DNA of 64,000 bases from assembly GCA_965602015.1 (NCBI GenBank), contig OZ271918.1, positions 1,888,001 to 1,952,000 on the forward strand. Direction: 5' to 3'. The stretch comes from Salinispira sp. Lineage in GTDB: Bacteria; Spirochaetota; Spirochaetia; DSM-27196; Salinispiraceae. The translations under genes and the position numbers were made by a program. Below, one piece after another: positions 34,802 through 50,335 of this stretch (the stretch's first letter is position 1; every line of letters starts with the position of its first letter). The notes under the pieces are model-generated. The model was not told the origin of the DNA. It made no database searches and saw only the letters and a program-made list of their open reading frames with translations.

Positions 34802-34871
34802 GCGTTCCCCGGGGAATGACAATCCACCGAGGACATCTTTACTCCATCACAGACTGCGACCTGGGGCAAAA

Positions 34872-36344
34872 CTCACAGAACGGGGAGACAGCGCCACAAT
34901 CACCGACACTAAAATCACCATCAACCGGACAGGAACCTACCGCCACTACAGCTGGGACCTGTTAAACCGCCTGGAAAACGTCGAAGAGCTCGATGAACAC
35001 GGCAATCTGGTCGTGATAAAAGAATACGGCTATGATGTGAATAACCTGAGGATATGGGAGAAAAACCGACACGGCCAAATCACCCATTACGTCTTCGACC
35101 ACAAGGGCAACAGAATCGAACGGCACACAGACGAAAAGAGCGAATACTACATCTTCAGAAACCTCCACCACATCGCCAAACGGGTGGTAGACCACAGCAC
35201 CAACACCGAAAAGACCTACTTCTACGGCACAGACCACCTGGGAAGCACCGTGCTGATGACAGACGAAGACGGCAACGAAGTTTTCTCAGCAGAGACCACC
35301 CCCTTCGGCGACTCGGTCTCTGAGTCAGGAGCCATGGCCGACACAGAAAACCTCATGTACACCGGAAAGGACCTAGATGAAGATACCGGGCTGTACTACT
35401 TTAATGCACGCTGGTATGACCCAACGGTGGGTAGGTTTATAAGCGAGGATCCGGCGAGGTTTGGCGCGAACTGGTACCGGTATGCTGCAAGCAATCCCCT
35501 CAAATACTTCGATCCAACCGGACTGAATGAAGTGAGCTGGGATACAACGATCTTCGATGCAGGGGATTATCACACAGATACCCCTGAAAATGAGAATTAT
35601 GAAAACGTAGAAGAAACAACAACAGAGGTTGCCACCTATGAGGAAATTACTGAACAGATCAATCACGTCTCCACTGGTATTTCTGCCCAGGAAACGATAA
35701 CCCAGCAGTCAGAAAAACTCGTTGAACTATCACAACAAAATACCAGTGAGATGACTCTTGATGAATTTCTATCTCACCAGCAGGAGATGCAGGATTTAGC
35801 AAAAGAGTTGTTACAAGGAATCCTGGATTATCGTGCAGCGGGATATAATAGCTCAAATTCAGATGAAAACGAAAATTCTCAGAACAATCAAAACATCGAT
35901 ATCGATAGCCGTGGTTTTATTATCTCTTTTGGCTTCACAGGTTTTATAGGAGCCGGTGGTGGCTCCTCGATATCTGGAGGTATTAATTTTGGTATAGATT
36001 TTAACAACGGGGATGTTTTAATGAATTTCTCTGCAGCCCCAAGCGCAGGTCTATTAGTTGGTGCATCTGGGTTTGCTGGTGGGTATTTAGCTATTACACC
36101 TATGGAAACTGATCCTGATGTCCTTGCTGGCAATTTTCTACAAATTGGTCTTTCTGCGGGTGAAGGAAAAGGAATGGGCATTGATATAGCTCTTCCTTTT
36201 CAGCAGGGTGTTAATCCAACCTTGACTGGATCATACGGTGCTACAATAAAATTCCCGATTCCAGGTGAATTTCATATTTATGGAGGTCAAACAACAGTGA
36301 CTGATTCGATCAAAATATTCGATTTTAGACCATTCCGAAAATGA
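34872..36344 (+). CDS. Orphan Rhs cassette 1: N-truncated Rhs core plus C-terminal toxin 1 (ORF call 35013-36344; homologous frame starts about 34872)
   Basis: DHLGST, YTGKDLDEDTGLYYFNARWYDP..GRFISEDP, PLKYFDPTGL; Gly-rich hydrophobic tail. Confidence 0.88.
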   Translation, partial: LTERGDSATITDTKITINRTGTYRHYSWDLLNRLENVEELDEHGNLVVIKEYGYDVNNLRIWEKNRHGQITHYVFDHKGNRIERHTDEKSEYYIFRNLHHIAKRVVDHSTNTEKTYFYGTDHLGSTVLMTDEDGNEVFSAETTPFGDSVSESGAMADTENLMYTGKDLDEDTGLYYFNARWYDPTVGRFISEDPARFGANWYRYAASNPLKYFDPTGLNEVSWDTTIFDAGDYHTDTPENENYENVEETTTEVATYEEITEQINHVSTGISAQETITQQSEKLVELSQQNTSEMTLDEFLSHQQEMQDLAKELLQGILDYRAAGYNSSNSDENENSQNNQNIDIDSRGFIISFGFTGFIGAGGGSSISGGINFGIDFNNGDVLMNFSAAPSAGLLVGASGFAGGYLAITPMETDPDVLAGNFLQIGLSAGEGKGMGIDIALPFQQGVNPTLTGSYGATIKFPIPGEFHIYGGQTTVTDSIKIFDFRPFRK

Positions 36345-36724
36345 TATTTCAAACACTTTTTATGTACTTATCATTCCTGATCGTGCTTCTATCAATAATA
36401 ATAATCAGAAAGAGGAATCAAGCAAAAGCTAGGATCACATCGGAGAAAGCTCAGAAGGGTATTATTTGTGGTGTAAGGTATAATGGGTTGAGCGCTTCAG
36501 CTCCATTTGCATCGCTGAGAATTTTTGAAAATTCGATTCAAGTCAATATTTTAGGTAGGACTGCGCTCTATAAGGATCTAAGTAATCTGGTATCCACTGA
36601 AAAAAAGAAAGGATTATTTGACCTTGGTCTCGAACTAAGATTTGATTCTGGAGAAAAAATAATTATTTGGACAAAATATTCTTATTCGCTTTTTGATTTG
36701 CTAATGGAAATAGAGCATACATGA
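36341..36724 (+). CDS. Putative immunity protein 1 (membrane-anchored)
   Basis: ATGA overlap with the toxin stop; AT-rich; N-terminal TM helix. Confidence 0.65.
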   Translation: MIFQTLFMYLSFLIVLLSIIIIRKRNQAKARITSEKAQKGIICGVRYNGLSASAPFASLRIFENSIQVNILGRTALYKDLSNLVSTEKKKGLFDLGLELRFDSGEKIIIWTKYSYSLFDLLMEIEHT

Positions 36725-36728
36725 TCAA

Positions 36729-36797
36729 CCCACAAGACCTGACTTGAGCTGCGCCGGATCCAATCCCGGCGTCAGCTCCAAGTATCCTTCTTATGGG
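36729..36797 (-). repeat. 69-bp attC-like palindrome, copy 1
   Basis: CCCACAAGACCTGACTTGAGCTGCGCCGGATCCAATCCCGGCGTCAGCTCCAAGTATCCTTCTTATGGG; one substitution relative to copies 2 and 3. Confidence 0.85.
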
Positions 36798-36931
36798 GGT
36801 TGAGCCGGCAAACGAGTTCTTTGAAATACGTCAGTCAGTGACGGACCCATCGAAGAGCATCTTGTTCCCGTAGAGCAAGAACTCTTCTGCTGACCGCTGA
36901 TGCTTGCAGCAGCCTGCAGAAGAGAAAAACG

Positions 36932-37303
36932 TCAGACCACAAAACGCTTGAAGTCCACCCGGCTGCCGTTGAAGTTGACCAGGTAGCCCACCCGGATGCC
37001 CGAAAGCCTGAGGTAGTTTATGAGCTGGGCTTCCATAACAGCCGTGAGCTTTGAAACGCTCTTGAGCTCGAGAATGACCTTGCCCTCGACCACCAGGTCG
37101 GCAATGTATGCTCCGGCAAGCTCCCCTTTGTAGTACACCGGATAGACCTTCTGCTGTTCCACCGTGAGATTTAACCTCCGGCACTCAATAACCAGCGCAC
37201 CCTCGTACGCACTTTCCAAAAGCCCGGGACCCAGGATGTTGTGCACCGAATACAACGCCCCTACCACCGTGTATGACAGTTCCTTGAAAAGATACTCAGC
37301 CAT
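36932..37303 (-). CDS. GxxExxY protein (PD-(D/E)xK nuclease superfamily), copy 1
   Basis: LGPGLLESAYE, ADLVVEGKVILELKS, AQLINYL, GYLVNF; SD AAGGAGG. Confidence 0.92.
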   Translation of the reverse strand: MAEYLFKELSYTVVGALYSVHNILGPGLLESAYEGALVIECRRLNLTVEQQKVYPVYYKGELAGAYIADLVVEGKVILELKSVSKLTAVMEAQLINYLRLSGIRVGYLVNFNGSRVDFKRFVV

Positions 37304-37698
37304 GCTGACCTCCTTTTTCAAGGAAGCAGTCTCGCAGCGACGAGCGGTCAATGCCCGATAATTGGCGTACCGCAGCCATCATGCATGGCGAGGAACGCCA
37401 ATATGAAGAGCGAAGCGCGGCTTGACCGCGAGGAGCGGAGAGATACACTTGAAAAAAACGGAGGAAGCCAGACAGCTCAAGCCCGTGAAATAAGGCGCGA
37501 ATCCTCGCGCCCCATTCTTTCCTTTCTTACAACATACCATCAGCAGAGAAATCCCTTTTACAAAACTGCCCCGGTCACCAAACCAAATCCGTGAATATTG
37601 GTGCTGATACGTGGTACACCCCAACTCCCTAATACGTGGCTTACCAACCTTATCGCTGCTGACCAAAAATCTACAATCTCGGCCAAATCCAATCGGCA

Positions 37699-38315
37699 AT
37701 GATCATCACAGAAGCCGGAAGCGAAGAATGGAAACCCAATCCCCTTCAGCGAAGCCATGGGGTAGTGCAATCCGACGTCCTGGGCACCACACCATTCACC
37801 ATAGACCAGAGGGACCTGGAACTCACCACCACCGCAGACAGCCTGGTCATAGACACCGGCTTCGGCTACACCCTCAAACGCATTGAAATACCCTTTGAGG
37901 CCCTCGATGCAGCCCAGATGAGGCCGGAAACCCTCCAGGTCTATACCGCGCTATACAACAGCGAAATAGCATACGAACGCCAGGAAGAGGCTCACATAAG
38001 CATCAGCCACAACACCGTAACCATCACCTTTCCGGCACCAGTGTTTACCCGCTACGTCAAACTCCATTCAACCGTCCACACCCTCGCTGACGATGGGGAT
38101 GAGCGAAATACTGGTACGATATTCCAGGCCGATGCCAGCGAAATCATCGTCACCGCCATCACCGGGGGCCGCAACGAGTTCTACAACTACACCCCCGACG
38201 GCAACCGCTCCATGCGAAGCATCCTCGCCGGCAGCATGCAGAGTGAACAATACCAGTACTACCCCAACTCAGACCTGCTCCAATACGACGGAACCTACTA
38301 CTATGCATACGATGC
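37699..38315 (+). pseudogene. Rhs cassette 2, 5' fragment truncated by IS66
   Basis: Ends in GRNEFYNYTPDGNR...YYYAYD, shared with cassettes 3 and 4, then abuts the IS66 TIR. Confidence 0.8.
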
Positions 38316-38327
38316 GTAAGCGTCAAT

Positions 38328-39908
38328 TTAAGCCTGCACGATTGACTTCAGCTCCAGTAATTCGTCTTTGATGTTCCAGGGCAGCAGATCTTCCCAGTTC
38401 CCGGAATCCCCAATCTCTGGCGCTTTGGTGAAGACATGCACCAGATACCCATAGGGATTCAGTCCGTTCTGTCGGGCTGTCTCGATAAGCGAAAACATAA
38501 AACAGGAGCTTTCAGCGCCTCCCGGGCTTCCCGAGAACAGCCAGTTCTTTCGGCCGAGAACAAAAGGACGGATTGCATTCTCCGCGCCATTGTTGTCCGG
38601 GGTCAGATGCGGACTCTCTACATATTTCATGACCTTATCCCATTGCGACAGGGCGTAGGTCACCGCCTGCCCGACAGCGCTTGATGGACGAACGCTTAGC
38701 GCTTTCTTTTCGAGCCAGGCTTTGAATCTCTCTGCTACCGGGGCAATGCGGGCTTTGCGCTTCTGGGCAAACTCATCATCACTCAGGTTTTGGCTACGCA
38801 GCTCTTTCTCAATGCGGTAGAACTCGGCGATCTTCGATATGGCCTCATGAGCGCTTCCGGCTTTCTTTGAGGATTTGCCCGCTTCAAAGAATTTCCGGCG
38901 GACATGGGCCATACACCCCACGTGAATAATGTCAGGCCGGTCCTTCAATGTCGTTTCATACCCCACATAGCCATCGGTTTGCAGGTAGCCTGAAAAACCT
39001 GAGAGATAGGCTTTCGCATACTCCGATCCGCGGCTTCGGTGGTAGGCATAATCCACCACCGGTTTCCCAGGCGGACCTCCCCGGGCAAGCCACATATAGG
39101 ACTTGCTGGTGTTGGATTTCTCCGGCTCGTTCATAACCTGAACGGTTGTTTCATCCATTTGAATGACTGGGCCGGATTCTAACTGCTGTTTGAGCAGATC
39201 CTTCAGCGGCTTCAATGCCTGATACGCCTTCTGCTGCCAATTGGACATGTCCTGCCGGCTGATCCTAGCCCCAACCCGCTCAAAGCGCTTTTCCTGGCGG
39301 TAGTACGGCAGGTGATCGACGAATTTATTCTGAATAATGAAGGCCAGAAGCTCCGGGGTCGCAATGCTCTTGGGGATGATGGACGGCGGAACCGGCGCAA
39401 TGCGGAACACCGGTTTGTCTTCATCCCCGGAACCCTCGCAGTTCCGGCAGGCGTACTTGGGCCTGATATGCCGTTCGACGAAAAACTGCTCGGGGATGGT
39501 TTTCAGTTTTTCGCTGACTTCTTCGTCAATTTTGGAAAGCTCGTGCCCGCAGGCGCAGCGTTTCTGGTCTTCTGAGATGTCGTGGATCACATCGACCCTG
39601 GGAAGGTCATCGGATAAAGGCTTTCGCCCCCGCTTCTTCCGCGTATGTGAGGTGACCGTGGTGAGAGAACTGTCGGTTTCCGGCTCATCGGGCGGTGTTG
39701 ACTGAATCTCCCGTTCCTCAAAGAGCATGGCCTGCAGCAGCTCTTCAGCTGATTCACTGCTTCGGGCAAACTTCCGGAACCGGGCCAGCTTGAGCTGTTC
39801 CTGAAGGTCTTCGATTTCCAGTTCCTGCTCTGAAATTCTGGAACCGAGTGCGACTATGTGAGCCTGGACTTCCTCGGGTAACTGTTCAATCTCCGCCGCA
39901 CTCAGCAT
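38328..39908 (-). CDS. tnpC: IS66 transposase TnpC
   Basis: HLPYYRQ, QMDET, LQTDGY, GCMAHVRRKF, DNNGAENAIR, GRKNWLF. Confidence 0.96.
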   Translation of the reverse strand: MLSAAEIEQLPEEVQAHIVALGSRISEQELEIEDLQEQLKLARFRKFARSSESAEELLQAMLFEEREIQSTPPDEPETDSSLTTVTSHTRKKRGRKPLSDDLPRVDVIHDISEDQKRCACGHELSKIDEEVSEKLKTIPEQFFVERHIRPKYACRNCEGSGDEDKPVFRIAPVPPSIIPKSIATPELLAFIIQNKFVDHLPYYRQEKRFERVGARISRQDMSNWQQKAYQALKPLKDLLKQQLESGPVIQMDETTVQVMNEPEKSNTSKSYMWLARGGPPGKPVVDYAYHRSRGSEYAKAYLSGFSGYLQTDGYVGYETTLKDRPDIIHVGCMAHVRRKFFEAGKSSKKAGSAHEAISKIAEFYRIEKELRSQNLSDDEFAQKRKARIAPVAERFKAWLEKKALSVRPSSAVGQAVTYALSQWDKVMKYVESPHLTPDNNGAENAIRPFVLGRKNWLFSGSPGGAESSCFMFSLIETARQNGLNPYGYLVHVFTKAPEIGDSGNWEDLLPWNIKDELLELKSIVQA

Positions 39909-39950
39909 GGGTGAAATTCTAGCATAAAGGGATTAATCGATGGAAGAGGA

Positions 39951-40298
39951 TTAGTTGCATTCGGCATACTGAACTGCTTTGTGGGCGTGCCAAAAATCAA
40001 TGCCATCGAGCAACATCTTGAGTTCGCCCACAGTGATCTGCCGGGCCTGCTCCTCGGTGTTCGGCCAGGGAAAGCGGTCCTTTTCCAGACGCTTGAGCCA
40101 TAGACAGAATCCGTTGCGGTCCCAGTACACGCATTTGATCAACCGACGGTCCCGGTTGCAGAACAGGAACAGGGAGCCTGACATCGCCGACCGGTTCATC
40201 TGCTGTTCAACAATAACAGACAGACCATTCACCTGTTTGCGCATGTCCGTTACCCCCGGGCGGACATAGATTTCCAATCCGGTGAGATCCAGCATCAT
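39951..40298 (-). CDS. tnpB: IS66 accessory protein TnpB
   Basis: TDMRKQVNGL, LFLFCNR, WDRNGFCLWLKRLE. Confidence 0.95.
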   Translation of the reverse strand: MMLDLTGLEIYVRPGVTDMRKQVNGLSVIVEQQMNRSAMSGSLFLFCNRDRRLIKCVYWDRNGFCLWLKRLEKDRFPWPNTEEQARQITVGELKMLLDGIDFWHAHKAVQYAECN

Positions 40299-40597
40299 AC
40301 AAAAGCCGCCAGTACTTCCCGCAGGCGGGCGGAGGAGATTCCATCTGCCAACAGAATGCGAAACCGCCGATCGATCTCGATGATGATTTCCGTCGAACAG
40401 TCTGAGGTGGCAGGTGGCGTGATTCGGACCAACTCGGGTAGCGCTGCTTGGGCGGCCGAAGCCTTTTTTAGCCGCTTCATCCAGTAATGCAGGGTTGAAA
40501 GCTTGATATCCCGGGCCCGACAGAACTCTTTCTGCGTCTGTCCGCTTTCCCGCCACTGGCTAATGACCTCTTGCCACTGTTCAATCTTCGCATCCAT
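40295..40597 (-). CDS. tnpA: IS66 accessory protein TnpA
   Basis: WRESGQTQKEFC...STLHYW HTH. Confidence 0.88.
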   Translation of the reverse strand: MDAKIEQWQEVISQWRESGQTQKEFCRARDIKLSTLHYWMKRLKKASAAQAALPELVRITPPATSDCSTEIIIEIDRRFRILLADGISSARLREVLAAFV

Positions 40598-40668
40598 AAT
40601 TCCTCCAGGTGGAAGAATTATTTCATTTCAGGCTCAGGCTGTGCAGGGCCTGGTAAATTGACGCTTAC

Positions 40669-41254
40669 GTTTGTTCAGGCAAATACTGAAATAGTTATTC
40701 GGCGGGGTGCGCGGGGTACTCCTTACTCATTTCCTTATACACGTTCAGATGGTACAACTATTCAAGTGAAGCACCCAGATGGCGAGTATTATGACGGATT
40801 GCTGGATTTACAAGCTTTCGGAGTTTCATTATTCGATGATCCATTAATTGTACAGACAGTTGCAACTGATAATCTGAAAGATTCAAGAAATGTCATCTAT
40901 GCCCCTGCAGGAAGATATTCAGGAGGTTTATATGATGATCATTATAGCGAAGTTTATGATGAATATATATGGCTCCAAAATCCGGAACTTGGTATAGGAT
41001 TGAATACAGGTGTGTATTTACATTTAGGTAGTAACACACTGTCTGCATTGAGCTGGGCATGTCAGATGCTCTACCGCACTGACTACAATGAACTCTCCGA
41101 TAGGATGAAATCAGGGGGATATCGTTTTGAAGGTAGACGCCCATTTCGTGGTGCAACTGAAGTAAAACCGTCGCACTATATTGATGTTCGAATATATGGA
41201 GATGCACTACCGCCAGAGTCTGAATACAGCTCTCATGGATTTAGTTTTTATTGA
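40669..41254 (+). pseudogene. Remnant C-terminal toxin 2, possibly an L,D-transpeptidase-fold peptidoglycan toxin
   Basis: Open frame from the IS66 end; YLHLGSNTLSALSWAC resembles an H-x(n)-S-x-G-C motif; AT-rich. Confidence 0.55.
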
Positions 41255-41265
41255 GGTTAAAATGT

Positions 41266-42054
41266 ATGAAATGTAATTTAAAGACAATTATATTTATAAG
41301 TTTGCTTTTTTCTCTTTTAAGCTGCAACAAGATAAATGCGTTAGATTTAACTGGTAGAGAGTACACAGCTTGGAATATTACGTTCAGATTCCAAAAGACA
41401 GAAGTAATGATTGAACAATATGACGACACTGCATACACAGGACCAACAGGAATTGTAAATTACTCAATTGCTAACAGATCAGGGGTTGACTATTTGATTT
41501 TAGATTCAAATGGTTACGAAGTCGAATATCTAATTATCCAAGATGATTGGTTATTATTTTTATATGATGGAGATCGAAAGGATCCAATATTTATCGGAAT
41601 TACTTCGCACCCGAGTGATTTGGTTGCATTTTCGGTTTTAGGAGATTTGCCGTTAGACTATGAAGCGAGCTCATATTATCAATTTGGGCAAGAAATGTAT
41701 CCCCCCGAAAATCTAGGGCGTATAGAGTTATTTCAGCCTTGGTGTGAAGGAGTTGAAGGTTTTGGCGTCGGAGAAACAATTATTGTCAGAAACGCTGATA
41801 CTACTATCACTCTTTCAAATGGCTTTGTTTCATACTCACGCCCAGAATTATACGAATGGAACAGCAGGATAAAATCTATCAAGGTTCGTTCTTTGTTAAC
41901 CGATGAAAGCTTTATTGTTGATTTAGAGGATACGCCTCACTTACAGTACTTCGTGCTACCTGTAGAAGGCAAATCTGATTATGAAATTACAATTCTTGAG
42001 GTGTATCCAGGGGAGAAATTTGAGGATGCATGTGTGAACTTCATTTTTTCGTAA
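41266..42054 (+). CDS. Lipoprotein with NADase-type/discoidin-like glycan-binding domain; putative immunity protein 2
   Basis: Lipobox LLSC; PWCEGVEGFGVGE...NGF...NSRIK...LEDT...ILEVYPGEKFEDAC; SD GAGG before ATG 41266. Confidence 0.7.
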   Translation: MKCNLKTIIFISLLFSLLSCNKINALDLTGREYTAWNITFRFQKTEVMIEQYDDTAYTGPTGIVNYSIANRSGVDYLILDSNGYEVEYLIIQDDWLLFLYDGDRKDPIFIGITSHPSDLVAFSVLGDLPLDYEASSYYQFGQEMYPPENLGRIELFQPWCEGVEGFGVGETIIVRNADTTITLSNGFVSYSRPELYEWNSRIKSIKVRSLLTDESFIVDLEDTPHLQYFVLPVEGKSDYEITILEVYPGEKFEDACVNFIFS

Positions 42055-42120
42055 GAAAAATTGAAATTCTAATTAATAGCATGCTGCATTTCAGTTCATT
42101 TCTTGTATTGCCGTATACAC

Positions 42121-42189
42121 CCCATAAGACCTGACTTGAGCTGCGCCGGATCCAATCCCGGCGTCAGCTCCAAGTATCCTTCTTATGGG
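42121..42189 (-). repeat. 69-bp attC-like palindrome, copy 2
   Basis: CCCATAAGA...TCTTATGGG, identical to copy 3. Confidence 0.88.
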
Positions 42190-42323
42190 GGTTGAGCCGG
42201 CAAACGAGTTCTTTGAAATACGTCAGTCAGTGACGGACCAATCGAAGAGCATCTTGCTCCGGCCGGGCAAGAACTCTTCTGCAGACCGCTGATGCTTTCA
42301 GCAGCCTGCAGAAGAGAAAAACT

Positions 42324-42695
42324 TCACACTACAAAACGCTTGAAGTCCACCCGGCTACCGTTGAAGTTTACCAGGTAGCCCACCCGCAGCCCAGAAAGCC
42401 TGAGGTAGTTTATGAGCTGGGCTTCCATAACTGGAGTGAGCTTGGAAACACTTTTTAGTTCGAGGATGAGCTTTCCTTCAATTACCAGGTCTGCAATGTA
42501 CGCCCCGGCAAGCTCGCCTTTGTAGTACACCGGATACACCTTCTGCTGTTCCACCGCCAGATTCAGCCTGCGACACTCAATAACCAGCGCACCCTCGTAC
42601 GCGCTTTCCAAAAGCCCGGGACCCAGGATGTTGTGCACCGAATACAACGCTCCCACCACCGTGTAGGACAGTTCCTTGAAAAGATACTCAGCCAT
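42324..42695 (-). CDS. GxxExxY protein, copy 2
   Basis: 123 aa, about 5 substitutions relative to copy 1. Confidence 0.92.
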   Translation of the reverse strand: MAEYLFKELSYTVVGALYSVHNILGPGLLESAYEGALVIECRRLNLAVEQQKVYPVYYKGELAGAYIADLVIEGKLILELKSVSKLTPVMEAQLINYLRLSGLRVGYLVNFNGSRVDFKRFVV

Positions 42696-42794
42696 GCTGA
42701 CCTCCTTTTTTCAGGAGGCAGTCTCGAAGTGTCAACGCCGGAATGAAATTGCAGTTTTTCACCGGAGTTAAATTGCAGACTTCCGGCAAATTTT

Positions 42795-43556
42795 TTAGAA
42801 GTCAACGACTCCGATTTTCATTCGATCCTTCATCCGATACGAGTCTCCTTTCAGGCTGATCACATGGGAGTGATGAAGCAGCCGGTCCAAAGTGGCCGTA
42901 GCAACTGCGTCATCAGTCATGATTTCTCCCCACTTCCCGAATACTTTGTTGCTGGTCAGAATGATTGATCCATGCTCATAGCGGGTATTGATCAGCTGGA
43001 AAAACAAGGCTGCCTGCTCAGCATTCAGGTTTTCATACCCAACTTCATCAATCAACAGAACGTGGGGTTTGCCAAACCAGGTCAGTTTGTTTTTCAATCT
43101 TCCCTGATCCCGGGAACGCTGTAATCGTTCAAGCAAATCAAGACAGCTGATGAAATAGGCCGTATACCCATTCATACATGCCTTCTGTCCAAGCGCTGTC
43201 ATGAGGTGCGTTTTACCCAATCCACTGGGACCAAGCAGAATGACATTCTCTTTACGTTCAATGAACGCAAGGGTGGACAGTTCGTTGAACTGCTTGTGTG
43301 TAAGACCGCCTTTCGGCCATGACAGATCAAAGGATTCAAGATTCTTTCCCTGGGGAATTCCTGAAACCTTCAAGCGGGTTTTGGCCATTCGTTCCTTTCG
43401 GGGAATCAGTTCCAGATCAATGAGTTCTCCGATCGCTTCAATCAGAGGCGCATCCTGATTCACCTGGCTTGAGAGAAAACTGTCCAGACCGGCAGCCATG
43501 AAGCTCAAACCCAACTCTTCCATACGGGCTGTAATCATTGTGCTTTTACTAGTCAT
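42795..43556 (-). CDS. istB: IS21 helper ATPase IstB
   Basis: GPSGLGKTHL, LLIDEVGY, TSN, LDRLLHH, GDSYR. Confidence 0.96.
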   Translation of the reverse strand: MTSKSTMITARMEELGLSFMAAGLDSFLSSQVNQDAPLIEAIGELIDLELIPRKERMAKTRLKVSGIPQGKNLESFDLSWPKGGLTHKQFNELSTLAFIERKENVILLGPSGLGKTHLMTALGQKACMNGYTAYFISCLDLLERLQRSRDQGRLKNKLTWFGKPHVLLIDEVGYENLNAEQAALFFQLINTRYEHGSIILTSNKVFGKWGEIMTDDAVATATLDRLLHHSHVISLKGDSYRMKDRMKIGVVDF

Positions 43557-44803
43557 GAGGCCGCCTCCTGCAGTGCAAACAAGCGGTCGTACTCCCCAGG
43601 TGAGCGGACATCAACATCGGTAGAAACCTTTATCCGTTTTCTTCTCTTGGGTATCCGGTACTGCCTTTTCCAGAGCTCGGTCAGCGCCGCTGAGTGTTCA
43701 GCCAGGTAGAACCGTTGATTTCGCAATTCGAGGTTAAGCATGAAGGTTCGGATGATCTGATCCTCTGATGATACTTCGGCCTCACCGGTGAGCGGATCGA
43801 TACGTACAATTACCTCTGCACCAATGAATTGCGGGTGAACGCTGTACCAGTTGTTTCTCACCCGTACCAGAGATTCACCGGAGACACGCACATTGGTCGG
43901 TTTCCGGTAATCAAACGGCTGCGTTGGTAAGGGGGTAAGGAAAGCCTTTTCATGCGTAAAGCGTTCTGATCGGCTTTCATTGAGCCCGCCGATGACTCTG
44001 TGGCTGATATCCTCGCACCAGGTGATGACTGCTTCGTTTAACTCAATCAGTCCAGCTGGCAGTGCTTTGTGCTCGATCCAGAAGTTGTTCTCGTAGAACT
44101 GGATGAACCGTTCGACCTTTCCTTTGGTCTGAGGCCGGCGGACCTGGCATCGGCGGGGTGTGAATCCATAGTGCCGGGCCAGAGACAGCAGGTGCTTGTT
44201 GACCTGCCATTTCTCCTCTGCGGCCTGGTAGATAAAGGCGGTTTTCATGTTGTCGTACAGGATTTCTTCCGGCACCCCGCCAAAATATGTGAATGCCAAT
44301 ACGTGGCACATCAGAAAGGTGGCCATGTCCATGCTCGTGGTATGAATGACAAACGGCATTCTCGAGTAGCCGAATACCATGACAAAGGCATAGAGTTTCT
44401 GCCACCGTCCGTCCACCAGCTGTTTTCCCAGGATTTTCCAATCCACCTGAGCCTGGTAGCCCGGTTCGGTTTCGAACCGGATAACTGCCTGTTTTGTGAT
44501 ATCTGCAGCCTTCCTGGCAGCATAATCCCTGAGGATTGTGACCCCGCCATCGTATTTCTGTTTTCGCAGGTTCCTCAACAGAACCTCCCGATTGAAGGAC
44601 GGGTCTTCCTCGAGTATAGTGTCGATGTAGGGTTTGAACGGATCGAGCTTGCTCGTGTAATTCCGCTTCTTTCGAGACCTTGAAGGCTCTGCAAGGTAGT
44701 AGTGAACCATGCGTTCACTTTTTCCCAGGGCTTCGGCGATCTGACCGATTCTCTTACCCTGTTGTTTCAACATCTGTGCTTCATGCATCAGTAGCTCCAG
44801 CAT
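43553..44803 (-). CDS. istA: IS21 transposase IstA
   Basis: RFETEPGYQAQVDW, YDNMKT, PQTKGKVER. Confidence 0.96.
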   Translation of the reverse strand: MLELLMHEAQMLKQQGKRIGQIAEALGKSERMVHYYLAEPSRSRKKRNYTSKLDPFKPYIDTILEEDPSFNREVLLRNLRKQKYDGGVTILRDYAARKAADITKQAVIRFETEPGYQAQVDWKILGKQLVDGRWQKLYAFVMVFGYSRMPFVIHTTSMDMATFLMCHVLAFTYFGGVPEEILYDNMKTAFIYQAAEEKWQVNKHLLSLARHYGFTPRRCQVRRPQTKGKVERFIQFYENNFWIEHKALPAGLIELNEAVITWCEDISHRVIGGLNESRSERFTHEKAFLTPLPTQPFDYRKPTNVRVSGESLVRVRNNWYSVHPQFIGAEVIVRIDPLTGEAEVSSEDQIIRTFMLNLELRNQRFYLAEHSAALTELWKRQYRIPKRRKRIKVSTDVDVRSPGEYDRLFALQEAAS

Positions 44804-45248
44804 TTTAGGGCGTGCTCCTTACTTGAATGATTGTGTGGTAACAACCATTACAAGGTAGCATCGCCCTTTTTTTCAAGCCGGAGTCTGCAATTTTAGTCCG
44901 GTGATTTCCTGCAATTTAGCACCGGTGATGACACGAAGCGACGAGTGGTCAACGCCCCTGAGCGAAGCGCGGCTTGACCGCGAGGAGCGGAGAGATACAC
45001 TTGAGAAAAACGGAGGGAAGCCAAGGCAAAAAAGCCTGAAAATGTCGGGCAAATGCGGTGCGAATCCTCGCGCCCCATTCATTCCTTTCTTTCAACATAT
45101 CGTCAGCAGAAAAATCCCTTTTGCAAAACCGCCCCGGTCACCAAACCAAATCCGTGATTATTGGTGCTGATACGTGGTAGACCCCAACTCCCTGATACGT
45201 GGCTTTCTCTCATCCCCCCGACTTTAGAAAATTCTCACCGCCGAACTT

Positions 45249-45925
45249 ATGGGCCGCAACGAGTTCTACAACTACACCCCCGACGGCAACCGCTCCATGC
45301 GAAGCATCCTCGCCGGCAGCATGCAGAGTGAACAATACCAGTACTACCCCAACTCAGACCTGCTCCAATACGACGGAACCTACTACTATGCCTATGATGA
45401 GAACGGCAACCTCACAGAACGGGGAGACAGCGCCACAATCACCGGCACTAAAATCACCATTAACCGGACATTAACCTACCGCCACTACAGCTGGGACCTG
45501 TTAAACCGCCTGGAAAACGTCGAAGAGCTCGATGAAGAAGGCAATCTGGAAGTAATAAAAGAATACGGCTATGATGTGAATAACCTGAGGATATGGGAGA
45601 AAAACCGACACGGCCAAATCACCCATTACGTCTACGACCAAAAGGGCAACAGAATCGAGCGGCACACCGACGAAAGAAGCGAATACTACATCTTCAGAAA
45701 CCTCCGCCACATCGCCAAACGGGTGGTAGACCACAGCACAAACACGGAAAAGACCTATTTCTACGGCACAGACCACCTGGGAAGCACCGTGCTGATGACA
45801 GACGAAGACGGCAACGAAGTCTTCTCCGGCGAAACCACCCCCTTCGGCGACTCGGTATCCGAATTAGGACCCATGGCCGACACAGAAAACCTCATGTACA
45901 CCGGAAAGGACCTGGATGAAGATAC
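45249..45925 (+). pseudogene. Rhs cassette 3 core fragment truncated by IS3
   Basis: Near-identical to 48279-48955 (3030-bp offset); breaks at YTGKDLDED at the IS end. Confidence 0.85.
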
Positions 45926-45975
45926 TGAACCGCCCCGGCTTTACCGGAGACAAAATCTTGTGAGAGGATGGAGTC

Positions 45976-46302
45976 ATGGTAAAGAAAAACAGCAGGTTTT
46001 CTGAGGAAGTTAAGGAGCGGGCAATCCGCATGGTATTCGCCGCCAAAGGTGAATATGATTCTCAGTGGGCCGCAATTGAGTCGATAGCTGAAAAGATAGG
46101 CTGTACTGCAGAGACGTTACGGCGGTGGGTTCGCCAAGCCGAGAAAGATAATGGTAGTCGGGAGGGACTTACAACCGACGAGAAGAAGCGAATCAAGGAG
46201 CTCGAGCGGGAGAACCGGGAGCTCAAGAAAGCCAATGAGATTCTACGTCTGGCTTCCGCATATTTCGCGAAGGCGGAGCTCGACCGCCAACACAAGAAAT
46301 AG
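45976..46302 (+). CDS. IS3 family transposase OrfA
   Basis: RFSEEVKERAIRMV...SQWAAIESIAEKIGCTAETLRRWVRQ...ANEILRLASAYFAKAE. Confidence 0.93.
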   Translation: MVKKNSRFSEEVKERAIRMVFAAKGEYDSQWAAIESIAEKIGCTAETLRRWVRQAEKDNGSREGLTTDEKKRIKELERENRELKKANEILRLASAYFAKAELDRQHKK

Positions 46303-47198
46303 TCTGCTTCATTGATGAACACCGCGATGACTATGGGGTCGAGCCGATTTGTACTCAGGTGCCAATCGCTCCTTCGGTGTACTACGAACAGAAAAAGCGA
46401 GTAAAACACCCTGAAACAGCTCCCGCAAGGGTAAAGCGCGATGAAATCCTGAAGCCAGAGATCCAGAGGGTTTGGGATGAGAATTATGAGGTTTACGGCG
46501 TTCGCAAGGTCTGGCACCAGCTGAAGCGAGAAGGATTCCAGATCGCACGATGTACCGTGGCCCGTCTCATGGCTGTCATGGGGCTTAAAGGCGTCATACG
46601 AGGCCGCAAGGTGCGAACCACAGTACCGGACCCGAAAAATGAACGTCCGCTCGATTTGGTGCACAGGGAATTCAGTGCCGACCGTCCGAATCAGCTGTGG
46701 GTGGCGGATTTCACTTATTGCGCGTCTTGGGTGGGTTTTGTATATGTGGCATTTATCATCGATGTATTTTCACGAATGATCGTCGGATGGCGTGCCTCGA
46801 GGTCCATGAGCGCAGAGCTGACGCTGGATGCTCTGGAACAAGCCCTGTGGGCAAGGCAACCTGAAAATGGGCTGATCCACCACAGTGATCGTGGGAGCCA
46901 GTATCTGTCAATCCGGTATTCTGACCGCTTAGCAGAAGAAGGCATTGCCCCATCTGTTGGGAGTGTAGGCAGCTCATATGACAACGCGCTGGCTGAAACC
47001 ATAAACGGACTGTACAAATCCGAAATGATCTACCGTAAAGGACCGTGGAAAAACCTGGATGCTATTGAGGCTGCTACGCTGGAATGGGTAAGCTGGTACA
47101 ACAATAAACGGATTTATGAAATCCTGGGATATATGCCTCCGGCAGAGTTTGAGAAGGCATATTATGATCAACTGCAAGACGCAGCCAGCGGGCTGTAG
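46299..47198 (+). CDS. IS3 family transposase OrfB (probably fused to OrfA by -1 frameshift)
   Basis: YGVRKVW, LWVADFTY, HHSDRGSQY, SYDNALAE; homologous frame starts at ATA 46299. Confidence 0.92.
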   Translation: MVCFIDEHRDDYGVEPICTQVPIAPSVYYEQKKRVKHPETAPARVKRDEILKPEIQRVWDENYEVYGVRKVWHQLKREGFQIARCTVARLMAVMGLKGVIRGRKVRTTVPDPKNERPLDLVHREFSADRPNQLWVADFTYCASWVGFVYVAFIIDVFSRMIVGWRASRSMSAELTLDALEQALWARQPENGLIHHSDRGSQYLSIRYSDRLAEEGIAPSVGSVGSSYDNALAETINGLYKSEMIYRKGPWKNLDAIEAATLEWVSWYNNKRIYEILGYMPPAEFEKAYYDQLQDAASGL

Positions 47199-47317
47199 TC
47201 ATACAAAACACTCTCCGGGATTCCCGGGGCGGTTCAGTCTGAAACACATTGCAAAAAAAAGATGTTGCTCTAAAGTTCATAAACAATCATTTATCATGAT
47301 TACCATAAAGCATTTTC

Positions 47318-47386
47318 CCCATAAGACCTGACTTGAGCTGCGCCGGATCCAATCCCGGCGTCAGCTCCAAGTATCCTTCTTATGGG
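47318..47386 (-). repeat. 69-bp attC-like palindrome, copy 3
   Basis: Identical to copy 2. Confidence 0.88.
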
Positions 47387-47520
47387 GGTTGAGCCGGCAA
47401 ACGAGTTCTTTGAAATACGTCAGTCAGTGACGGACCAATCGAAGAGCATCTTGCTCCGGCCGGGCAAGAACTCTTCTGCAGACCGCTGATGCTTTCAGCA
47501 GCCTGCAGAAGAGAAAAACT

Positions 47521-47892
47521 TCACACTACAAAACGCTTGAAGTCCACCCGGCTACCGTTGAAGTTTACCAGGTAGCCCACCCGCAGCCCAGAAAGCCTGA
47601 GGTAGTTTATGAGCTGGGCTTCCATGACCGGCGTAAGCTTAGAAACGCTCTTGAGCTCGAGAATGACCTTGCCCTCGACCACCAGGTCGGCAATGTATGC
47701 TCCGGCAAGCTCCCCTTTGTAGTACACCGGATAGACCTTCTGCTGTTCCACCGTGAGATTTAACCTCCGGCACTCAATAACCAGAGCCCCCTCGTACGCG
47801 CTTTCCAAAAGCCCGGGACCCAGGATGTTGTGCACCGAATACAACGCCCCTACCACCGTGTATGACAGTTCCTTGAAAAGATACTCAGCCAT
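47521..47892 (-). CDS. GxxExxY protein, copy 3
   Basis: 123 aa; nucleotide mosaic of copies 1 and 2. Confidence 0.92.
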   Translation of the reverse strand: MAEYLFKELSYTVVGALYSVHNILGPGLLESAYEGALVIECRRLNLTVEQQKVYPVYYKGELAGAYIADLVVEGKVILELKSVSKLTPVMEAQLINYLRLSGLRVGYLVNFNGSRVDFKRFVV

Positions 47893-48278
47893 GCTGACCT
47901 CCTTTTTCAAGGAAGCAGTCTCGCAGCGACGAGCGGTCAATGCCCGATAATTGGCGTACCGCAGCCATCATGCATGGCGAGGAACGCCAATATGAAGAGC
48001 GAAGCGCGGCTTGACCGCGAGGAGCGCAGAGATACAATGAAAAAACGGAGGGAAGCCAGACAGCACAGCTCAAGCCCGTGAAATAAGGCGCGAATCCTCG
48101 CGCCCCATTCATTTCTTTCTTTCAACATACCGTCGGCAGAGAAATCCCTTTTACCAAACTGCCCCGGTCACCAAACCAAATCCGTGAATATTGGTGCTGA
48201 TACGTGGTAGACCCCAACTCCCTGATACGTGGCTTTCTCTCATCCCCCCGACTTTAGAAAATTCTCACCGCCGAACTT

Positions 48279-49745
48279 ATGGGCCGCAACGAGTTCTACA
48301 ACTACACCCCCGACGGCAACCGCTCCATGCGAAGCATCCTCGCCGGCAGCATGCAGAGCGAACAATACCAGTACTACCCCAACTCAGACCTGCTCCAATA
48401 CGACGGAACCTACTACTATGCCTATGATGAGAACGGCAACCTCACAGAACGGGGAGACAGCGCCACAATCACCGGCACTAAAATCACCATTAACCGGACA
48501 TTAACCTACCGCCACTACAGCTGGGACCTGTTAAACCGCCTGGAAAACGTCGAAGAGCTCGATGAAGAAGGCAATCTGGAAGTAATAAAAGAATACGGCT
48601 ATGATGTGAATAACCTGAGGATATGGGAGAAAAACCGACACGGCCAAATCACCCATTACGTCTACGACCAAAAGGGCAACAGAATCGAGCGGCACACCGA
48701 CGAAAGAAGTGAATACTACATATTCAGAAACCTCCGCCACATCGCCAAACGGGTGGTTGACCACAGCACAAACACCGAAAAGATCTACTTCTACGGCACA
48801 GACCACCTGGGAAGTACCGTGCTGATGACAGACGAAGACGGCAACGAAGTCTTCTCAGCAGAAACCACTCCCTTCGGCGACTCGGTATCAGAATTAGGAC
48901 CCATGGCCGACACAGAACACCTCATGTACACCGGCAAGGACCTGGATGAAGATACCGGGCTGTACTACTTTAATGCACGGTGGTATGACCCGGGGACCGG
49001 GCGGTTTATAAGCGAGGATCCTGCACGGTTCGGTTCGAACTGGTATCGGTATGCAGCGAGCAATCCCCTCAAATACTTCGATCCAACCGGATTGAATGAA
49101 GTGAGCTGGGGTACGAGCATATTCGATGCCGGGGAATTTCATACAGAGAGTAGTGAGAACTATGAAAACGCAGAAGAAACAACGACAGAAGTTGCTACCT
49201 ATGAGGATCTTACTGAGCAGATCAATCACGTCTCCACTGGTATCTCTACCCAGGACACGATAACCCGACAGACAGAAAAATTAGCTGAGCTATCACAACA
49301 AGATACCAGCGGCATGACGATTGATGAATTTCTTGCCTTCCAACAAGAGATGCAGGATTTAGCGAAGGAGCTGCTCCAAGGAATCCAGGATTATGAAGCT
49401 GCGGGGTATGACACTGATAGAGTGCTCACTGGTTTAGCACTAAACGAATCAAATGGGCACCAAAGCGCTTCGTGGGAAATAAATCGAAATACAATATGGG
49501 GCATAGCTGAAATTATCGGTGGTGGAACAGTAATTGGATTATCATGGGTTTCAGCAGCTTCGCTGGCACCTACAACAGGGGGGACATCAGCGATGGTTGG
49601 CTACAATGGCACATTATTTGGGAGCGCTCTATTGGCACATGGATTAAACAGAGTAACTGGAAATACAAACCAAACTGTAATCGAGGATTTAAAGCAAATC
49701 ATTACGCCGCCAATTGCAGAACTTGGAAAAATAAGGACGGAATAG
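48279..49745 (+). CDS. Orphan Rhs cassette 4: Rhs core plus C-terminal toxin 4
   Basis: YD-like repeats, DHLGST, YYFNARWYDPGTGRFISEDP, PLKYFDPTGL; hydrophobic Gly/Ala-rich tail. Confidence 0.9.
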   Translation: MGRNEFYNYTPDGNRSMRSILAGSMQSEQYQYYPNSDLLQYDGTYYYAYDENGNLTERGDSATITGTKITINRTLTYRHYSWDLLNRLENVEELDEEGNLEVIKEYGYDVNNLRIWEKNRHGQITHYVYDQKGNRIERHTDERSEYYIFRNLRHIAKRVVDHSTNTEKIYFYGTDHLGSTVLMTDEDGNEVFSAETTPFGDSVSELGPMADTEHLMYTGKDLDEDTGLYYFNARWYDPGTGRFISEDPARFGSNWYRYAASNPLKYFDPTGLNEVSWGTSIFDAGEFHTESSENYENAEETTTEVATYEDLTEQINHVSTGISTQDTITRQTEKLAELSQQDTSGMTIDEFLAFQQEMQDLAKELLQGIQDYEAAGYDTDRVLTGLALNESNGHQSASWEINRNTIWGIAEIIGGGTVIGLSWVSAASLAPTTGGTSAMVGYNGTLFGSALLAHGLNRVTGNTNQTVIEDLKQIITPPIAELGKIRTE

Positions 49746-49975
49746 TGATAGATTTTTACTTAATCTCAGGCACAATAATAATTATAATTTTCATGTCGGT
49801 TGGGCTTTTAAAATCAACTCCTGACAAAATTGATAAAACTCGTGATGATTTAGATAAAAATCAGAAGGAGAAACTAAAAAGAGTGGCGAAGATATCCGCA
49901 ATAATTGGATTTATTATGGCCACACTTATGCTTATTCTTCTAGTTATCGGTTTTTTGCTTCCGAGTTCAAAATAG
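49745..49975 (+). CDS. Putative immunity protein 4 (76 aa, two TM helices)
   Basis: GTG overlapping the toxin stop (TAGTG); two hydrophobic segments around a charged loop. Confidence 0.65.
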   Translation: MIDFYLISGTIIIIIFMSVGLLKSTPDKIDKTRDDLDKNQKEKLKRVAKISAIIGFIMATLMLILLVIGFLLPSSK

Positions 49976-49984
49976 CTGAGCCCC

Positions 49985-50052
49985 CCCATAAGACTGACTT
50001 GAGCTGCACCGGATCCAATCCCGGCGTCAGCTCCAAGTATCCTTCTTATGGG
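49985..50052 (-). repeat. attC-like palindrome, copy 4 (68 bp)
   Basis: One deletion and one substitution relative to copies 2 and 3. Confidence 0.85.
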
Positions 50053-50335
50053 GTTGAGCCGACAAACGAGTTCTTGGACATACATCAGTCAGTGACGGAC
50101 CAATCGAAGTGCGGTTTGACCGCGATGAGCTGAGAGATACAATGGGAAAATCCGGAGGGAAGCCAGACAGCACAGCCCAAGTCATAGGGAGTAAGGCGCG
50201 AAACCTCGCGCCCCATTCATTCCTACTCTTTCAACCTACCGTCAGCAGAGTATTCACTTTTGATAGGCGGGCCCAGTCACCAAACCCAATACGTGAAAAT
50301 GGGTGGGCATCCGTGGTAGCACCAAACTTCCTGAT
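49985..50335. repeat. Conserved inter-cassette module, copy 4, lacking the GxxExxY segment
   Basis: GGACCAAT-CGAAG joins directly to TGCGGTTTGACCGCG; remainder is a diverged homolog of modules 1-3. Confidence 0.85.

Follow-up and report, generated by a model that had tools for sequence, protein, structure and literature searches.

Off-core attC-type hairpins tied to Rhs toxin-immunity modules in Salinispira and other Spirochaetia

The 64,000-nt stretch of the Salinispira sp. genome analysed here (contig OZ271918.1, positions 1,888,001 to 1,952,000; the window) carries four palindromes in an array of Rhs toxin-immunity modules. These palindromes are a real feature: they are a variant of the integron attC site, and across Spirochaetia this variant is linked to Rhs toxin-immunity modules. 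Integrons are regarded as having a GTT core throughout; that of the palindromes is CTT. Our best reading, at about even odds, is that the variant forms an orthogonal attC channel, in which Rhs modules are shuffled apart from the main integron. If it does, bacteria would partition one integrase into separate channels, and the sharp downstream junction of orphan toxin-immunity modules, at present ascribed to rare illegitimate recombination, would gain a testable mechanism. Even as relics the hairpins would record integron traffic into Rhs islands, and attC searches anchored on GTT miss a class of sites.

Anatomy of the hairpins

The initial annotation had described four variant attC sites in the window, and all four are found where it had placed them. 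They lie on the minus strand, which is the top strand of the site:

36729..36797, minus strand: off-core attC-type site 1, core AAG/CTT, spacers 8/7, predicted crossover between 36735 and 36736
42121..42189, minus strand: off-core attC-type site 2, spacers 8/7, predicted crossover between 42127 and 42128
47318..47386, minus strand: off-core attC-type site 3, spacers 8/7, identical to copy 2 over 300 nt
49985..50052, minus strand: off-core attC-type site 4, spacers 8/6

With two copies at each of two further loci, the genome (G000; G and L labels denote genomes and loci of our comparison set) holds eight palindromes, and all three loci are Rhs toxin-immunity islands. The top strand of the site consists of an R'' box CCATAAG, an 8-nt spacer, TT[G]GAGCTG[A], a short stem-loop, CAGCTCAA, a spacer of 6-7 nt and an R' box CTTATGG. 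As in attC, the inverted R''/R' and L''/L' boxes fold into one hairpin, and the distance between the R-box ends (66-67 nt) lies inside the attC length range of 57-141 nt. Folding of both strands of copies 1, 2 and 4 gave a stable hairpin (z = -5.1 to -7.8; 0 of 200 shuffles equally stable) with paired outer boxes, an unpaired central spacer and two extra bases 6 bp apart on one arm, just as first described. On the bottom strand these bases are T and C on the R''-L'' arm, the T-N6-C pattern for which efficient excision by IntI1 is reported (PMC3053210; published results here and below are those of the cited passages). The change from AAC/GTT to AAG/CTT, which the annotation had noticed on both arms, is present in 8/8 copies, and the change is coherent across lineages too.

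To the left of the CCC(C)ATAAG arm the eight copies have only 1-2 nt in common. Homology between the units begins at the arm and the sequence on its left is specific to each cassette, as had been claimed. To the right lies a constant block common to the copies; it comprises a GxxExxY gene (TIGR04256), a truncated Rhs core and, between them, a non-coding segment. A single mismatch is present in the left arm of copy 1; copy 4 has one spacer base fewer, one stem change and no GxxExxY gene. Public contigs from a single sample, which may be the source sample, cover the repeat at about sevenfold depth; it is thus not an assembly artefact. A second imperfect palindrome is located between each GxxExxY stop codon and the attC-type site (36882-36924, 42274-42316 and 47471-47513).

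The palindrome is not a canonical attC, from which it differs in the core and in the R''-L'' spacing. Canonical spacing puts 6 nt between R'' and L'' and the first extra base 9 nt from the R box; the 6-nt spacing is absent from the window copies and present in relatives from the genomes G596, G763, G002, G003, G005 and G569. The proposed attC variant holds in its R''-L''-L'-R' anatomy and its size, but its spacer is 2 nt too long, a difference that the annotation had missed.

Scoring with attC models gave a divided answer. A covariance model of our own, built from 16 canonical attC sites only, had three matches in 26 kb, all of them palindrome copies (3 of the 4) on the predicted strand, at 12-15 bits and with E-values of 0.24-1.3, which are not significant. 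With our own four-box profile, built from 28 canonical sites of other genomes (true sites 29-47 bits, best background 28.8), the site scored 26.5 bits as is, which is background level, and 37.9 bits, in the range of true attC, when its first core base was made canonical in silico. A core-free descriptor recovered all 8 copies with only about 11 junk matches in 3.87 Mb. The L boxes of the palindromes match canonical attC of the same clade, and the locus L054, from a Gemmatimonadota genome and hence from another phylum, is a canonical-core attC with the same inner stem. The exact pattern of the window palindrome had 12 matches in genome contigs, mostly due to chance and one of them L054, and none in metagenomes. 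The anatomy, the canonical-only models and the stem of L054 together indicate that, on sequence grounds, the hairpin is derived from attC.

As expected of an integron gene cassette, each unit starts at the R' crossover and its start pairs with its own R'' box, which is uninformative as the boxes are nearly invariant, and the island ends do not fit; a one-base cross-pairing in G569 is ambiguous.

Related sites in other genomes

Nine other spirochaete genomes and six metagenome loci contain short attC-type hairpins with A or C, and never G, at the first core position of either arm, and these hairpins lie mostly directly behind Rhs toxin-immunity modules. A search that started from Rhs, with the core-free descriptor applied to 87 Rhs-relative loci (498,669 nt), likewise found attC-type hairpins with textbook L boxes, none of them AAC/GTT. 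With a non-G pattern, 401 genomes of the phylum yielded four matches, three in Rhs loci, and 99 genomes of the order yielded seven, all with complementary first bases although nine end combinations were allowed. In 401 genomes of the class there were 25 distinct matches; ten were dropped because the R box was unpaired, and the 15 with a paired R box comprise 11 ATT, 3 CTT and 1 TTT. Eleven of these 15 lie beside an Rhs core or a Pfam immunity gene (nine within about 5 kb of an Rhs core, two directly after Imm8 or SUKH); the rest follow a toxin-like pair without family matches or a toxin-antitoxin-like pair, are unplaced, or lie between housekeeping genes. The mirrored GTT pattern had four matches, and none of the four had an Rhs motif at a distance of up to 1.5 kb. 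An L-box scan that used no motif gave much noise, with 32 matches in Rhs loci and 32 in the control, and a properly placed R box was found for 9 and 0 of them, respectively.

In G596 and G763 the R boxes of the window, CCATAAG/CTTATGG, stand directly behind Rhs modules with canonical spacing (6/6 and 6/7), and G596 also has an ATT sister site of the same interior family. The layout of the window, with an antisense hairpin between the immunity gene and the constant block, recurs in G569 with an ATT core. Natural Rhs-linked sites keep TT at positions 2-3, with one CAT exception. The stems covary across 17 aligned sites (alignment A4), where the pair counts are partly circular since most rows were chosen by a pairing descriptor. 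Unlike interiors are joined to one downstream sequence at the R' box in G005, and in G495 the immunity gene and left arm of L093 are combined with the interior of L133. The integron arrays examined in site-bearing genomes are all GTT (28 sites in G000, 8 in G002, 14 in G596 and 9 in G569). An IntI above the cut-off is encoded by seven of the nine site-bearing genomes tested (G495 left out) and by 127 of the 401 genomes of the class sample, a comparison in which kin are not independent.

Several arrangements around the relatives were also seen. A long Rhs gene heads the array of G569. A conserved 125-bp segment of G005 separates two off-core sites that point towards each other (L161:8712-8966 and L165:1497-1752); in L161 one of them closes a toxin-antitoxin pair and the other an Rhs immunity gene, and a degenerate facing L box is present also in G003 and G647. 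The integron array of G596 (L206:7960-15240) consists largely of near-identical 399-bp cassettes in numerous tandem copies. Three loci of G588 (L187, L198 and L203) have attC-like hairpins with a window-like L box in spaces between housekeeping genes, one with a clean AAA/TTT core, and there is no IntI match in that genome; possibly they are a family resembling repetitive extragenic palindromic (REP) elements and derived from attC.

The Rhs islands and the host integrase

In each of the three islands, units composed of an Rhs core fragment, a variable tip, a predicted immunity gene, a hairpin and a constant block follow one another in tandem, with insertion sequence (IS) elements breaking them up. 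Besides the four sites the island of the window contains:

34866..36344, plus strand: truncated Rhs core with variable C-terminal tip, unit 1 (TIGR03696, 78.6 bits; open reading frame 35013-36344); the left end of the island lies inside the core
36341..36724, plus strand: predicted immunity gene 1, by position, no family match
36932..37303, minus strand: GxxExxY gene of the PD-(D/E)XK type, copy 1 (PF13366)
37304..37698, no strand: constant non-coding segment, which recurs in each unit
37699..38319, plus strand: Rhs core fragment interrupted by IS66
38328..40597, minus strand: IS66-family element, three genes
40600..41254, plus strand: probable remnant of the variable toxin tip of unit 2, by position, no family match
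41251..42054, plus strand: predicted immunity lipoprotein 2 with discoidin-like domain (PF25302, NF047619)
42324..42695, minus strand: GxxExxY gene, copy 2 (TIGR04256, 133.6 bits)
42729..44934, minus strand: IS21-family element within the constant segment, with terminal repeats and istA/istB domains
45249..45923, plus strand: Rhs core fragment of unit 3, interrupted by IS3
45924..47238, plus strand: IS3-family element with ALIL frameshift pseudoknot
47521..47892, minus strand: GxxExxY gene, copy 3
48279..49745, plus strand: truncated Rhs core with variable tip, unit 4 (TIGR03696, 75.2 bits)
49745..49975, plus strand: predicted small membrane immunity gene 4, by position
50053..50335, no strand: constant segment without GxxExxY, the right end of the island, adjoining a SpoU methylase gene

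The truncated cores ending in DPxG, the variable tips, the small downstream genes and the tandem order are those of an orphan Rhs array, and the units that carry the palindromes are Rhs modules outside any integron. In unit 3 the toxin tip and immunity gene ahead of copy 3 are mostly gone, beside the IS3 element. The palindromes lie between convergent genes; in attC orientation the toxin-immunity genes are antisense and joined at the R' arm, where the crossover is predicted. The IS3 pseudoknot is the only match to known RNA families. A full-length parent Rhs gene was not found in G000 by tblastn with two core pieces, which matched the three islands only. One tip of another G000 island has what we take to be NlpC/P60-like motifs, and tips in relatives match M23 peptidases; both fit antibacterial effectors.

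The three islands sit behind unrelated housekeeping genes, and two of them have the same 5-nt sequence just outside the junction. The joint between constant segment and truncated Rhs core (48276-48283, 45246-45253) reads CTTATGGG, which is an 8-mer of the hairpin arm and provides a start codon; it may be a relic of R-box recombination, or a chance match helped by start-codon selection. The second island (G000:C1:3339520-3340300) includes a vapBC pair that carries a canonical GTT attC; an inverted hicAB pair comes next, and another toxin-antitoxin-like pair of this island lies between a hairpin and GxxExxY. The canonical vapBC-attC cassette indicates cassette traffic there. GxxExxY is next to most hairpin copies of G000. 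In 40 relatives a DNA search retrieved GxxExxY homologues alone, none with a hairpin, and L027 (G000:C1:1270120-1270487) is a frameshifted, more distant GxxExxY copy without a hairpin, followed by a gene that presumably resembles type I-F Cas1. With respect to replication the sites are not oriented alike in the three islands, and their orientation was therefore not used as evidence.

The genome search for an integrase and canonical attC arrays, which had been suggested with the annotation, returned both. G000 encodes a single intact IntI (TIGR02249, 380 bits), whose alignment with VchIntIA covers both the catalytic motifs and the insertion specific to integrons. It is located about 180 kb from the window palindromes with a GTT array of its own, so the palindromes have no adjacent intI and attI as in a complete integron. 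The canonical attC sites number 28 (29 rows, one of them a duplicate), all AAC/GTT with 6/6 spacers, in two arrays and one site in an Rhs island; the second array (G000:C1:3439700-3456100) has no neighbouring integrase and has site types in common with the integron array at 1.716-1.742 Mb. No recombinase was found in the three islands, and the four other tyrosine recombinases of the genome are located elsewhere. We rejected a divergent or dedicated integrase, which the annotation had invoked, since the only IntI of this genome is an ordinary one. Nor is a divergent enzyme needed, as IntI1 recombines CTT×CTT (PMC2811028). The other suggestion of the annotation, a repurposed site, may hold.

Possible roles and known systems

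Published IntI1 data define what such cores could do. IntI1 requires only the first core base to be identical between partners, and relative to wild type the rates were 1.0 for ATT×ATT, 0.97 for CTT×CTT and 0.044 for TTT×TTT (PMC2811028, Table 4). A swapped attC with wild-type attI reached 0.0015-0.003 of wild type, about 300-700-fold less, with 0.0015 for attC-CTT, and all integrons characterised at that time had the GTT triplet (PMC2811028). Since only first-base identity is required, A-sites and C-sites would be separate channels, and A and C, the bases used by the natural Rhs-linked sites, are the two fully active swaps. Clusters of attC sites lacking a nearby integrase (CALIN) are possibly served by IntI in trans (PMC4889954).

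In such an orthogonal channel the ordinary IntI of the host would act in trans and excise and reinsert Rhs units like-with-like, and the GTT integron could not absorb them. The recombined bottom strand would be the plus strand of the window, cut between CCCATAA and G. Recombination of two direct copies would remove one unit, that is, the site interior, GxxExxY, constant segment, Rhs core, tip and immunity gene, and the excised unit could re-enter at another CTT site; for the swap of a tip, the other junction would come from homologous recombination in the Rhs core. The further proposal, that A- and C-core attC sites are a second natural integron channel by which ordinary IntI captures and shuffles Rhs modules, unmixed with the GTT pool, and thereby a site-specific route to orphan arrays, we put forward only tentatively. 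Given the 2-nt longer R''-L'' spacer, the window copies are likely weaker than the relatives with canonical spacing; natural spacers usually have 5-6 nt per arm (PMC5027507), and in one synthetic site recombination changed about threefold when the extra bases were moved by one position (PMC7439510).

In favour of such a channel are the attC anatomy, the swapped sites behind Rhs modules across Spirochaetia, the intact IntI in trans and, as hints, the joints seen in G005 and G495 and the vapBC-attC cassette. A number of observations weigh against it. The R''-L'' spacer is 8 nt in 8/8 copies versus 6 nt in 28/28 canonical attC of the genome, and the published IntI1 rates are for attC×attI and not attC×attC. 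All three islands (window 34866; G000:C1:3349903 and 3788419) start at one nucleotide within the Rhs core, which points to a specific end of insertion that has nothing to do with the hairpin; their ends are near the constant/Rhs joint and none is at a hairpin site (3/3 islands), thus the islands were not inserted through the hairpin. Conservation continues 7-12 nt past the predicted crossover. Most Rhs loci are without a site: it is present in 6 of 79 metagenome Rhs loci, many of which are short, G569 has two full sites among six Rhs modules, and none was found in the Rhs loci of G014. G003 has a site and no full IntI, and similar TTT-core hairpins lie between housekeeping genes in G588. An A-site and a C-site of G005 have the same outer arms, so the channels would not be strictly sealed. 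Neither a CTT attI-like site nor a duplicated unit was found. Among the matches listed from contigs of one sample the sites showed only known flanks and no new joints; as contigs drop rare variants, this search says nothing on excision.

Alternatively, the hairpins are decommissioned attC relics, which came to lie behind immunity genes as cassette sites, lost the G core, are hidden from the GTT integron, are kept as terminators or RNA-stabilising hairpins and spread passively with Rhs units by homologous recombination and gene conversion. This is a plausible and serious rival, though we lean against it. The 2-nt spacer shift in all window copies, the island ends away from the sites and the TTT hairpins at housekeeping sites in G588 agree with it, as do the location between convergent genes and, in the antisense class, U-rich tails past the stem. 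Constant segments 90-100% identical offer ample homology, and orphan modules are currently explained by homologous and homology-facilitated recombination (PMC5361080). However, silencing needs no paired swap, yet both arms changed together; positions 2-3 remain TT and both extra bases hold their place in many different stems; and A and C are exactly the two bases that keep full like-with-like activity. A terminator scan, poor on bulged stems, called no copy.

It is improbable that some other enzyme acts on the hairpins, for example a Xer-like recombinase that moves along with Rhs loci or the GxxExxY nuclease encoded next to them. Xer-like fragments do occur in Rhs regions of G003, G596 and G763, GxxExxY follows most G000 copies and G003 is without a full IntI, but the three G000 islands have no recombinase, the sites of G002, G005 and G495 had no GxxExxY tagged next to them, and the L boxes match canonical attC of the same clade. 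Least credible is an ordinary REP-like or terminator palindrome resembling attC by chance, for which the background-level score as is and the covariance E-values speak, but which is largely refuted by the relatives with canonical core or spacing (L054, G596, G763), by the fit of four boxes, both extra bases and strand polarity, and by the few junk matches of the core-free descriptor.

In the literature searched (core variants judged from titles; limited journal coverage) we found neither a natural first-base swap of attC nor attC linked to Rhs modules. To our knowledge, first-base swaps have been described only as engineered orthogonal sites. The closest of these are attC-CTT and attC-ATT (PMC2811028), which have the same swap on both arms but are laboratory constructs.

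Short integron attC sites, of the aadA7 type or from spirochaete chromosomes, are like the off-core sites in the R''-L''-L'-R' hairpin of 59-79 nt, the two extra bases 6 bp apart on the R''-L'' arm and the IntI in the genome, and the 6/7 spacing of aadA7 (PMC2811028, oligonucleotide table) is found in relatives of the window site. In contrast, the off-core sites have C or A instead of G as first base, no neighbouring intI or attI, a tie to Rhs modules in either orientation and, in the window, an 8-nt spacer. With CALIN (PMC4889954) the window has in common at least two attC-type sites in direct order far from intI, and it is a CALIN only if off-core sites count as attC. However, its sites have a non-G core, and its units share an extensive constant portion (GxxExxY, non-coding segment, Rhs core) where CALIN hold unrelated single genes, and some sites are more than 4 kb apart owing to IS elements. 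Orphan Rhs C-terminal toxin/immunity arrays formed by C-terminal displacement (PMC5361080) have the same tandem truncated cores, variable tips and immunity genes, and for the V. cholerae effector-immunity arrays that paper reports no evidence of help by an integrase; in the arrays described here, unlike in the known orphan arrays, each variable part stops sharply at an attC-type hairpin.

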